Source: Dictyostelium discoideum
Taxonomy: Eukaryota
Length of the DNA stretch: 64,000 nt
Direction: 5' to 3'
Assembly (NCBI GenBank): GCA_000004695.1
Contig: CM000153.2
Coordinates: 3,744,001-3,808,000 of the forward strand
Below the pieces are notes generated by a model. The model had not been told where the DNA came from. It did not search any database and saw only the letters and a list, made by a program, of their open reading frames with translations. Of this stretch, positions 39,822 to 43,260 are shown piece after piece. How positions within the stretch are numbered: the first letter of the stretch is position 1; every line of letters begins with the position of its first letter. The translations under genes and the position numbers were made by a program.

Positions 39822-42800
39822 TTTTGTTGAACAAATTAAAGTAATATCAATTTCACCAATTTCAGTTTTACCAGGATAAATTTCAAAAAAGGTACGATTT
39901 ACATTGACATTTGCTTTATGACCAGATATTGGGAATTGGAAGAAAACTGATAATGGAGTATTTGTTTGATTAAAAAAAGTAAAAGTGTCAGAATACCTTT
40001 GATTAAGTCGACACTTTTCACCATCAAGTCCAAAGGTAAATTTTGTTTGATTGAATTTTAATGGTAGATTTGGATCATTGTTTCTATAGAACATAGTGTC
40101 TTTCATTAGAGATATAACTTTTGGTTCAGTTTTATAGATTCCACTTCTACCATTCCTTACACTATTGTTTCTTTTAGATTTTAAATAAATTTTTAATGCT
40201 TTTTCATTCATTGTTGGATTAAGTAATATATCGATAATCCTTTCTGGTGATACAATGATTTTTGGTTTTTCTATTGTCAATGGTGCTTGAGAATCTGTAT
40301 TACCAATAACATCTTGTGGATCAAATTGTTCGTTATCATAAAAATATTCTTCATTTAATTCATCAATAAAATCTTCATTTGATAAACTTACATATGAACT
40401 TGGTGTTTTAATCATTAATGTTTTATATATTCTTTCAAAATTTGATTCTTCTCTATTTGTAATTGGAGCTTCTTTATTTTGCTTATTATTATTATTATTA
40501 TTATTATTATTATTATTATTATTATTATTATTATTATTATTATTATTATTATTATTATTATTATTATTATTATTATTATTATTATTATTATTATTATTAT
40601 TATTATTATTATTATTATTATTGGTAATATCATTTTTTACCTTTTCATCACTTTTATTGTTGGTTTCTAATTTATTTATTGATATTGAACAAGTTTGAGT
40701 TGATTGTTGATTATTTTTAGTTATTGATAGTTCTGTTGTTTCTGTTATTGGTTTTGGACCATTAAAAACACACATGGAAATTGAATTCTCTTTACATTTT
40801 CTAGATTTCTTTCTTTTGATTATGAACCACAGAGAGAATACTATTGAAAAACCTACAAATACTAATACAATTGGTAAGATTATTGCCAATTTATGTATTT
40901 TACTAGTTTCTCCAAAAATAGGTGAATCACTTGATGAATAGATTGCCATTGATGTTAAATAAATATCACCTTTTGTTGTAAATGCTATATTAATCTTTTC
41001 TAATGAATTGATATTTTCATAATTGAATGTTACGTTTTTAAATATTGGACCTTGATTACTTTGAAATGGTTCTAATAGATATACTGGTTCACTACCAATG
41101 TAAACTGATAATGGACTAGTTTGTTGGTCAATTGGTACATATGTGAAAAATAATTGAATTTGGTTGAATGGTGCGCTACTATCTATTGTTGTTGTAATTA
41201 TTACTGGTTGATTGGAATTTAATGATGTTACACCACTTGAAAATAAATCATTTAATTCGTTGGATGGTGCAACATTTGGTAATTCTGTTACAAACTTTGA
41301 ATTATTCGATATTGTACACTTTCCACCTATTTCTTGGCAACCACTTTCAAATGGATTACTTTCAATAATAAATTGATGATCTGGTTTCGAATTTACCATT
41401 GCCAACCCATAATAAAAAGAATAACCACTAAATACTGTAATCTTTGGTAAATCAATAACATATAGTATAGATTGAATATATTTTATAGTAACTCTAAAAT
41501 TTATTGAACTTTCTTTGCTTGATGATAAAGGAAATATACACCCATTCTCTTTTGAACTAGCATTTATAATGGTCTCTGAAATTGAATCTTTTTCAGTAGT
41601 AGTGGTGGTGAAAATACATTGAATGTTTTCAACATTGAGTGATGGATCAATTAATTCAAATAGTACGTTTACATTTAATAATGAACTTTTTACTGACTGG
41701 TATGGTTTATTTGGAAATATTGATAATATCTTCAATTTATTTAAAGTACCTTCATCACTATAATAGTAAGGTGTAAATATTGAACCATAAATATGATTTT
41801 TTGATATTTCAATAATATTTGATTGATTGAAAAAGTAAGAGTCTCTAACACTGATAGTTGACGAAATTTCTCTTACTCTTGCTAATACTGAATAGTTTAA
41901 ATATGAATTTACTATATCAACTCTTTTTATTTTCCCATCAATTCTAAAATTTCCAAAACCTGTGACATTTTCTAATAATAATATATTGTTATCTAAATTT
42001 GCTAGAATTGGACTTTGTAATTTTAAATTTCTAATTGAATAATAGGTTCCTAACTCTTCATTATTTCCATTACCATTAATTACTAAAAAAAAATTTAAAT
42101 TATTTGATAAAGTGCTAAAAAATGGATTTGAAATTTTAAAATCTGCTGAATGCTGCACTAAACTAGATATTGTCTTTGAATAGTTGTAACATGGTGCATA
42201 ACAATCTTCAGCGAAACCAGTTATGTTTGATCTGTTGGCAATAAAGTTAAAGTTGAATGCATTTATTTGACCAATGAAAATATCGTCATCTGATTTTATA
42301 TTTGGAGAAAGTGAATATATACCATTACCTTCATACCCATAATCCATACTATTACTATTAATGTGATTTCTTGAAGGTGATACATTTCCTGCTGTTGTTA
42401 ATGAATAGAAATTATTTGATGATTGAATATTTTCTGTACCAAACTGAGCTATTAAATTTGAACCTGAGTTACTAACAATTAAATTATTCTCCATCTTAAC
42501 ATTTGGTATTCCAACCAAAGAATACCAATGGAGATCTCGTTTGATTGGTTTCAATTATTCCACTATTTTCAATGGTAACATTATTTGAAAGTTCTATATA
42601 TAATGAATTTCTAAATCTTTGATTTTTACCTACAATAATATCAATGGCATTATTTTGATTATTTGGCGAGAAAATCAGTTTCGTGTCTTGGTACTCTTCA
42701 TTTGTAGTTATACCAAAAGATCGTATAATGGTATTTTGGATATTCACATTTACACCACCGCATATATAAATTGAAGATCCATTGGTAGAGGTTGACGTTA

Positions 42801-43260
42801 AACCCACTGGTTGATTACTAGTAGTGAAAAAAAGTTTTATATTCTTATCTGAACTTGGAATTTGTAAATTAGTAACGTTGATTTGATTTAAAGAATGTGT
42901 AAATTTTGATGTCCTGACATAAGGAAATGAGTCACTAACAATTGATACATCTTCAAGTTGATCCCATTCTGGTGCTTTATCTAACTGGTTTCGCTGAGTG
43001 TACCATAGATTTACCAACGAGTGATATTGAGCCTCCTAAAACAAGTATTCCTGGGAAAAAACCAAATGGATCAATAGGTGAATCATTAAGATCTACAAAT
43101 TCCATATTACAACCATCGCATATGAAACTACCTCCAGGCAAAATAATCAATGCACCAATGCTAAACCCGTTATTTGAAATGTTTAATGAACCTTCCACGC
43201 AAAGAATGTTTATAAAAAAATAGTGAATTGAATCAAATTCCTCTAACACCATGTTTGAAC
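39822..43260 (-). pseudogene. RLK-A ectodomain, TM and juxtamembrane exon, frame-disrupted (two or more frameshifts at about 43005 and 42530 relative to paralogue RLK-B)
   Basis: ORFs 42977..43294, 42496..43017 and 39708..42554 are consecutive frames of one coding sequence that is colinear with the RLK-B ectodomain. TM helix LAIILPIVLVFVGFSIVFSLWFII followed by KRKKSRK; GTAAGT donor at 39820-39821. Confidence 0.65.
40486..40622. repeat. (ATT)n on the plus strand, equivalent to (AAT)n poly-Asn in the RLK-A cytoplasmic region
   Basis: Seen directly in the sequence. Confidence 0.9.

Follow-up and report, generated by a model that had tools for sequence, protein, structure and literature searches.

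Goldberg et al. (2006, PLoS Genet 2:e38, PMC1420674) described 15 protein-kinase pseudogenes in Dictyostelium discoideum AX4 and cited Chibalina et al. (2004) as one of two earlier pseudogene reports. One of the 15, named Gdt3_ps in the legend to their Figure 6, is entered in their Table S2 as DDB0219954p, a pseudogene of the TKL/GDT group with an 'active-like' kinase (IAVK, HRDLKPEN, DFG), and its published conceptual protein starts MGLLLKVLILCLSINIFSKGNIII.. (PMC1420674). Here we analyse this locus, gdt3_ps, in a 64 kb window of AX4 chromosome 4, the window being the whole stretch of DNA that was studied; it is strongly AT-rich and contains long AAT and poly-N tracts. Genome reads and expressed sequence tags (ESTs) were individually examined by the previous authors wherever frameshifts or stops blocked a gene model; sequence errors were corrected in four other kinase genes only and Gdt3 was kept as a pseudogene (PMC1420674). 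The same study reported that automated predictions hid such lesions behind bogus introns, that typical introns have less than 15% GC and a length of 60-250 nt, and that residual transcription was detected for nine of the 15 kinase pseudogenes overall (PMC1420674). Our own literature search on the name gdt3 returned unrelated matches only.

The functional GDT receptor kinases of D. discoideum, Gdt2 and Gdt4, resemble gdt3 in their architecture, in a similar N-terminal region of the ectodomain and in their kinase motifs, but unlike gdt3_ps they have uninterrupted frames. The architecture of the family comprises a signal peptide, the GDT ectodomain, one transmembrane segment and a TKL kinase. In the window, the receptor-like kinase locus that the first-pass annotation called RLK-A is gdt3_ps, a receptor-kinase pseudogene of D. 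discoideum AX4. It occupies 37232..43680 of the reverse strand, from the ATG at 43680-43678 to the TAA at 37234-37232, with splice sites and frames read from the sequence. There are six exons (43680-43623, 43562-43332, 43260-39822, 39700-39294, 39192-39044 and 38967-37232, all on the reverse strand), separated by genuine introns of 60-121 nt with a GC content of 3-20%. The Table S2 sequence of Gdt3_ps matches the conceptual protein of the window, with an X at each of the two breaks (..SAKPVXDKAPEW.. and ..GWNTKCXKMENN..; PMC1420674). The pseudogene with the same two frame breaks has thus been known since 2006; the locus is the same, nothing about the object differs and the finding is correct but not new. 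To the published description we add the exact mutations, the finding from four sister genomes that both are derived, a second assembly that confirms them, the signature of a template switch and evidence of recency. In our view it is very probable that gdt3_ps is a GDT receptor-like kinase which was inactivated in the D. discoideum lineage, very recently, by two independent indels.

The first-pass annotation had proposed that the RLK-A ectodomain is broken by two frameshifts relative to its paralogue, at about 43005 and about 42530. Every peptide that it quoted is present in the RLK-A frames, and a tblastn comparison of the open reading frame (ORF) of the paralogue, gdt5, with the RLK-A DNA yields three collinear segments in three different frames (43198-42989, 42780-42502 and 42503-40788). 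The last two segments are linked with E = 6e-165 at 50-57% identity and the first has E = 1e-9; this three-frame homology is far beyond chance. Both sites stand as proposed, and only their positions required adjustment, the refined breaks lying ~20 nt further downstream.

The exact lesions were defined by a five-way nucleotide alignment of AX4 with four related genomes: L001, deposited as 'D. discoideum' (GCA_054859355.1); L002, D. cf. discoideum (GCA_054859205.1); L003, D. citrinum (GCA_054859145.1); and L004, D. dimigraforme (GCA_054859025.1). The syntenic gdt3 loci were reached via the gdt5 orthologues, and the order of genes is the same in all four relatives: aminotransferase, phosphodiesterase-like, SPX-EXS, gdt5, a convergent gene of ~1,035 aa and gdt3. 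In each of them the gdt3 orthologue is read in a single frame over residues 97-913 of the frame-corrected AX4 ectodomain, with 75-88% identity. L002 is the closest, with 95.0% nucleotide identity in exon 3. We note that L001, although labelled 'Dictyostelium discoideum' (ACTFIW tags), is 86-90% identical to AX4 in this region and is therefore more distant than L002 (ACTFIY, 95%, exon 3); its species label looks questionable.

The first lesion (site 1) is a 20 bp deletion with its junction at 42987|42986 (42986..42987, reverse strand). The 20 nt TTTAGAAAATGGATTGTTAG, which L002 carries between ..GCGAAACC and AGTTA.., are without a counterpart in AX4, the left flank of which may also be given as ..TCAGCGAAACC, followed by AGTTA..; the flanks are identical to those of L002, and the 20 nt are kept in frame in all four orthologues. 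No microhomology was seen at the junction. The frame begun at the signal peptide is closed after ..SAKPVR by a TAA at 42977..42979 (reverse strand). The second lesion (site 2) is a 7 bp insertion, GGAATAC, at 42506..42512 of the reverse strand, which none of the four orthologues contains. Its flanks, ..TTCTTTGGTT|CAAATGTTAAGATGGAG, are identical to those of L002 and the placement of the insert is unique. Here the middle frame is closed after ..VFFGWNTKC by a second TAA at 42496..42498 (reverse strand). Both breaks are multi-nucleotide indels situated outside homopolymers, as had been suggested from the AX4 sequence. All other indels in exon 3 are multiples of three. An otherwise conserved coding region carries two frameshifts, each then followed by TAA, which is a mark of a pseudogene according to Goldberg et al. 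(2006). Both lesions are derived in the AX4 lineage.

Other descriptions of these events were considered and set aside. The two indels do not compensate for each other, the net change of −20 + 7 = −13 not being a multiple of three. Site 1 could be described as a 21 bp in-frame deletion combined with a 1 nt insertion if L001 were the sole comparison, but L002 shows a single 20 bp deletion. Slippage between the local TTAGA repeats would yield a 21 bp deletion and a different junction and was rejected as the origin of site 1.

The insertion at site 2 creates a perfect inverted repeat (42503..42528, reverse strand), which consists of TTGGTATTC (42528-42520), the loop TTTGGTTG and GAATACCAA (42511-42503), the 9 bp arms being exact reverse complements. 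The inserted GAATAC is the reverse complement of GTATTC 8 nt upstream and abuts a pre-existing TTG/CAA complementarity. Enumeration of all 16,384 7-mers at site 2 gave a stem of at least 9 bp involving the insert in 0.5% of cases, or 0.7% when weighted by composition, which corresponds to a chance probability of ~0.005-0.007. Quasi-palindrome (template-switch) mutations have been described in bacteria, yeast and human. Site 2 resembles them in that an inverted repeat with imperfect arms was made perfect by a few inserted bases; it differs in that the first inserted G is without a hairpin template, and the mechanism is here deduced from a single event. With these features, the site 2 insertion is likely to have arisen as a quasi-palindrome replication error.

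Alternatively, the two breaks could be artefacts of sequencing or assembly in AX4, in a gene that is in fact undamaged. This reading has some circumstantial support: the AX4 reference dates from 2005 and was assembled from Sanger reads of a very AT-rich genome, and four kinase genes were corrected for errors of this kind (PMC1420674). To our minds it is very improbable. A separate D. discoideum assembly (L005; GCA_054883475.1, chromosome CM142510.1), which was reached via the gdt5-cluster member P0146 (ACTFIT_005647), is 99.70% identical to the window from 59888 to 35703 over the entire 24,129 bp. It contains both AX4 junction strings and shows zero differences across gdt3 exon 3; the only differences from AX4 within gdt3 are one T in an intronic run of 16 T and one intron substitution. 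Because this assembly has both lesions and an identical exon 3, the lesions are not sequencing errors. The events are, moreover, of 20 and 7 bp in non-repetitive sequence, unlike homopolymer miscounts, and the kinome authors, having checked individual reads, kept Gdt3 as a pseudogene (PMC1420674). The continuous frame that independent sequence might have revealed at the two sites was not found in the second D. discoideum assembly, and together with the four syntenic orthologues, which are open in one frame across both sites, this agrees with the view of the first-pass annotation that the breaks are real mutations.

The lesions might instead be bypassed, either in the mRNA, if unannotated and very short introns restored the frame, or on the ribosome, through programmed +1 frameshifting at two places, so that a full-length receptor kinase would be made. 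Around both sites there are indeed GT..AG segments whose length is 1 mod 3, and in L005 an automatically predicted gene model with a product of 1,975 aa spans the locus. We find this scarcely credible. The candidate segments are 31-100 nt long (the shortest 31-46 nt) with a coding-like GC content of 27-41%, and are mostly shorter than the genuine gdt3 introns described above. By composition and length they are thus unlikely to be genuine introns, and their removal would excise residues that are encoded in frame by all four orthologues. Direct reading of the sequence before either stop revealed no slippery or re-pairing sequence, and the origin of two recoding sites from two fresh indels is implausible. 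Exactly such masking of lesions by bogus introns has been described (PMC1420674).

Having weighed these alternatives, we favour inactivation of gdt3 by two indels that arose independently in the large exon of the ectodomain, namely a 20 bp deletion and a 7 bp insertion, the latter resembling a hairpin-templated replication error. Each indel shifts the frame and has a TAA within the next 8-14 nt, and since each frameshift is so soon followed by a stop, translation would end early: from the authentic ATG it is predicted to stop after ~190 residues, ahead of most of the ectodomain, the transmembrane segment and the kinase.

The remainder of the gene has the appearance of a complete GDT receptor kinase. 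The exon 1 product, MGLLLKVLILCLSINIFSKG, is hydrophobic and can be aligned with the N-termini of gdt5 and of the orthologues, and on this alignment it is a putative signal peptide. The frame-corrected ectodomain matches 25 Dictyostelium GDT proteins in a protein search (E = 1e-210 to 1e-58, 40-46% identity), and these matches, along with ~50% identity to gdt5, indicate that gdt3_ps contains the conserved GDT extracellular domain (gdt_ex). A Pfam search of the ectodomain gave no hits, Pfam being without a model for this domain. The protein database search found nothing more than 46% identical to the ectodomain, an absence that is uninformative as the related genomes do have gene calls at the locus and the database evidently lacks these models. 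A search with the cytoplasmic and kinase region was dominated by generic TKL kinases with no Dictyostelium match and is likewise uninformative on the annotation of gdt3. Exact matches to the 173-aa middle ORF of gdt3 and to P0008, the AX4 model of gdt5, were absent from the gene-position index. A single transmembrane segment, LAIILPIVLVFVGFSIVFSLWFII, is predicted at 40818..40889 (reverse strand) from a 24-residue hydrophobic stretch followed by KRKKSRK, and aligns with the equivalent segment of gdt5.

The protein kinase domain is complete (38654..39580, reverse strand; exons 4-6, including two introns). It matches the Pfam family PK_Tyr_Ser-Thr (PF07714) with E = 3e-51 over profile positions 3-256 of 258, and the IAVK, HRDLKPEN and DFG motifs of a C-terminal TKL-type kinase are present. 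Compared with the L001 orthologue the domain has 89-96% identity, unchanged catalytic motifs and common intron positions. We also note that in exon 5 (39044-39192) the sequence DFGTGK follows from DFG in AX4 and L005, compared with DFGTSK in L001, L003 and L004, the other orthologues from which the kinase region was retrieved; this substitution adjoins the activation segment.

Downstream of site 2 the spliced reading frame runs for 1,658 codons without interruption until the natural stop, whereas the other two frames contain 106 and 480 stops. The description of RLK-A as an ectodomain pseudogene attached to an intact kinase is thus apt, with two premature stops after the signal-peptide exons and, downstream, an open frame that includes a full-length Pfam kinase. 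For exon 3, substitutions were polarised with the more distant L001, L003 and L004 as outgroups. This assigns 27 non-synonymous and 27 synonymous changes to the AX4 branch (dN/dS 0.26), and 26 and 25, respectively, to the L002 branch (dN/dS 0.28). There is no difference between the branches (Fisher p = 1.0), and the relaxed constraint that might mark a pseudogene was not observed on the AX4 branch; the 97.5% upper bound on the fraction of that branch spent in neutral drift is ~0.15. Most simply read, these data suggest that the two lesions arose very recently and left the downstream part too little time to decay. The kinase would then look intact because the inactivation is recent, without any need for retained function. 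As there is neither relaxed constraint nor any further stop, it is the two frameshifts by themselves that point to a loss of gdt3 function.

These same observations bear on the possibility that the locus is functional in a reduced form, yielding an N-terminally truncated protein by way of a shorter transcript or an internal start, e.g. the ATG at 42494-42492, directly behind site 2, or one further downstream. Such a protein would be without a signal peptide and would keep the transmembrane segment and an active-looking kinase. The 1,658 open codons, which span three correctly placed introns, the complete kinase domain with its catalytic motifs and the AX4 branch without a rise in dN/dS can all be cited in its favour, as can the residual transcription of nine of 15 kinase pseudogenes overall (PMC1420674). 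We nevertheless regard this as unlikely. Open codons, a complete kinase and a flat dN/dS are all expected if the pseudogene is very young; the ATG at 42494 was already there in the ancestor and is not a new start; and ~540 residues of the former ectodomain would precede the transmembrane segment in a protein without a signal peptide. Curators with EST and reverse-transcription PCR data called the locus a pseudogene (PMC1420674). The more specific proposal, that gdt3 has recently been turned into a truncated membrane or cytosolic kinase which has no signal peptide, starts internally after the second frameshift and is under purifying selection, is in our view about equally unlikely.

Some points do count against recent inactivation of gdt3 by the two indels. 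The loss of function is inferred from sequence alone, and the 1,658 open codons and unchanged dN/dS would fit equally well with selection that still acts on a truncated product. The enumeration of 7-mers for the hairpin was devised only after the hairpin had been noticed. In addition, GCA_054883475.1 could be a laboratory relative of AX4, so that the lesions, although real, need not be fixed in wild D. discoideum.

The paralogue used in the comparisons above, gdt5 (DDB_G0285895, UniProt Q54MK0), lies at 46076..49854 of the reverse strand. Its 1,085-aa ORF (46076-49333, reverse strand) is identical to DDB_G0285895, and Q54MK0 is entered as "Growth-differentiation transition protein 5". It resembles gdt3 in having ~50% amino-acid identity in the ectodomain and the same intron positions, and it is located in tandem 2.4 kb upstream on the same strand. 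It differs in that it is open at both of the gdt3 sites and is annotated as a protein, not as a pseudogene. The first-pass annotation read the paralogue as continuous at the two gdt3 sites, which is correct, but gdt5 has a frameshift of its own at ~49335, and most of its kinase domain is gone. In AX4 and L005 one G is missing at ~49335, within an ..LCVEGS.. motif that is encoded by all four relatives. The models from AX4 (P0008; XP_637990 / Q54MK0) and from the ACTFIT annotation (P0146) bridge this frameshift by an extended intron. In the AX4 model the extended intron 2 (49309-49470) is 162 nt long with 23% GC, compared with a conserved intron of 67 nt and 9% GC, and ~32 conserved codons are skipped. 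The annotated gdt5 protein is probably, on this comparison, a model that masks a frameshift.

A further deletion of ~2.96 kb is found in AX4 and L005, with its junction at 45587/45584 (equivalent to L002 14276-17234). It leaves gdt5 without the bulk of its kinase domain, starting right behind the VVIK motif, and also removes the 3' part of the convergent gene. In the four relatives gdt5 encodes a full receptor kinase of 1,561-1,574 aa and the convergent gene encodes ~1,035 aa (e.g. L002 15187-18386, reverse strand). What remains of the latter in the window is a 272-aa ORF (44785-45603, forward strand) that ends at the junction of the 3 kb deletion, and its N-terminal region contains motifs like those of the GDT ectodomain (..FISLGGTVTLTG..). 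Between the convergent gene and gdt3, L002 carries a 435-aa DDE_1 (PF03184) transposase-like gene (18714-20052), which is absent from that position in AX4 and in the other relatives.

Beyond annotation gdt3_ps itself matters little. It is a textbook example of a young pseudogene, from a receptor-kinase family that is lineage-specific, and its exact lesions are now defined and polarised by means of four newly available sister genomes. The gdt5 protein model (Q54MK0 / XP_637990) merits re-curation, since a frameshift appears to be concealed in it by an artificial intron. The GDT cluster on chromosome 4 has undergone three independent disabling events, in two adjacent genes and on the short D. 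discoideum branch, which suggests ongoing turnover of the GDT receptor family.

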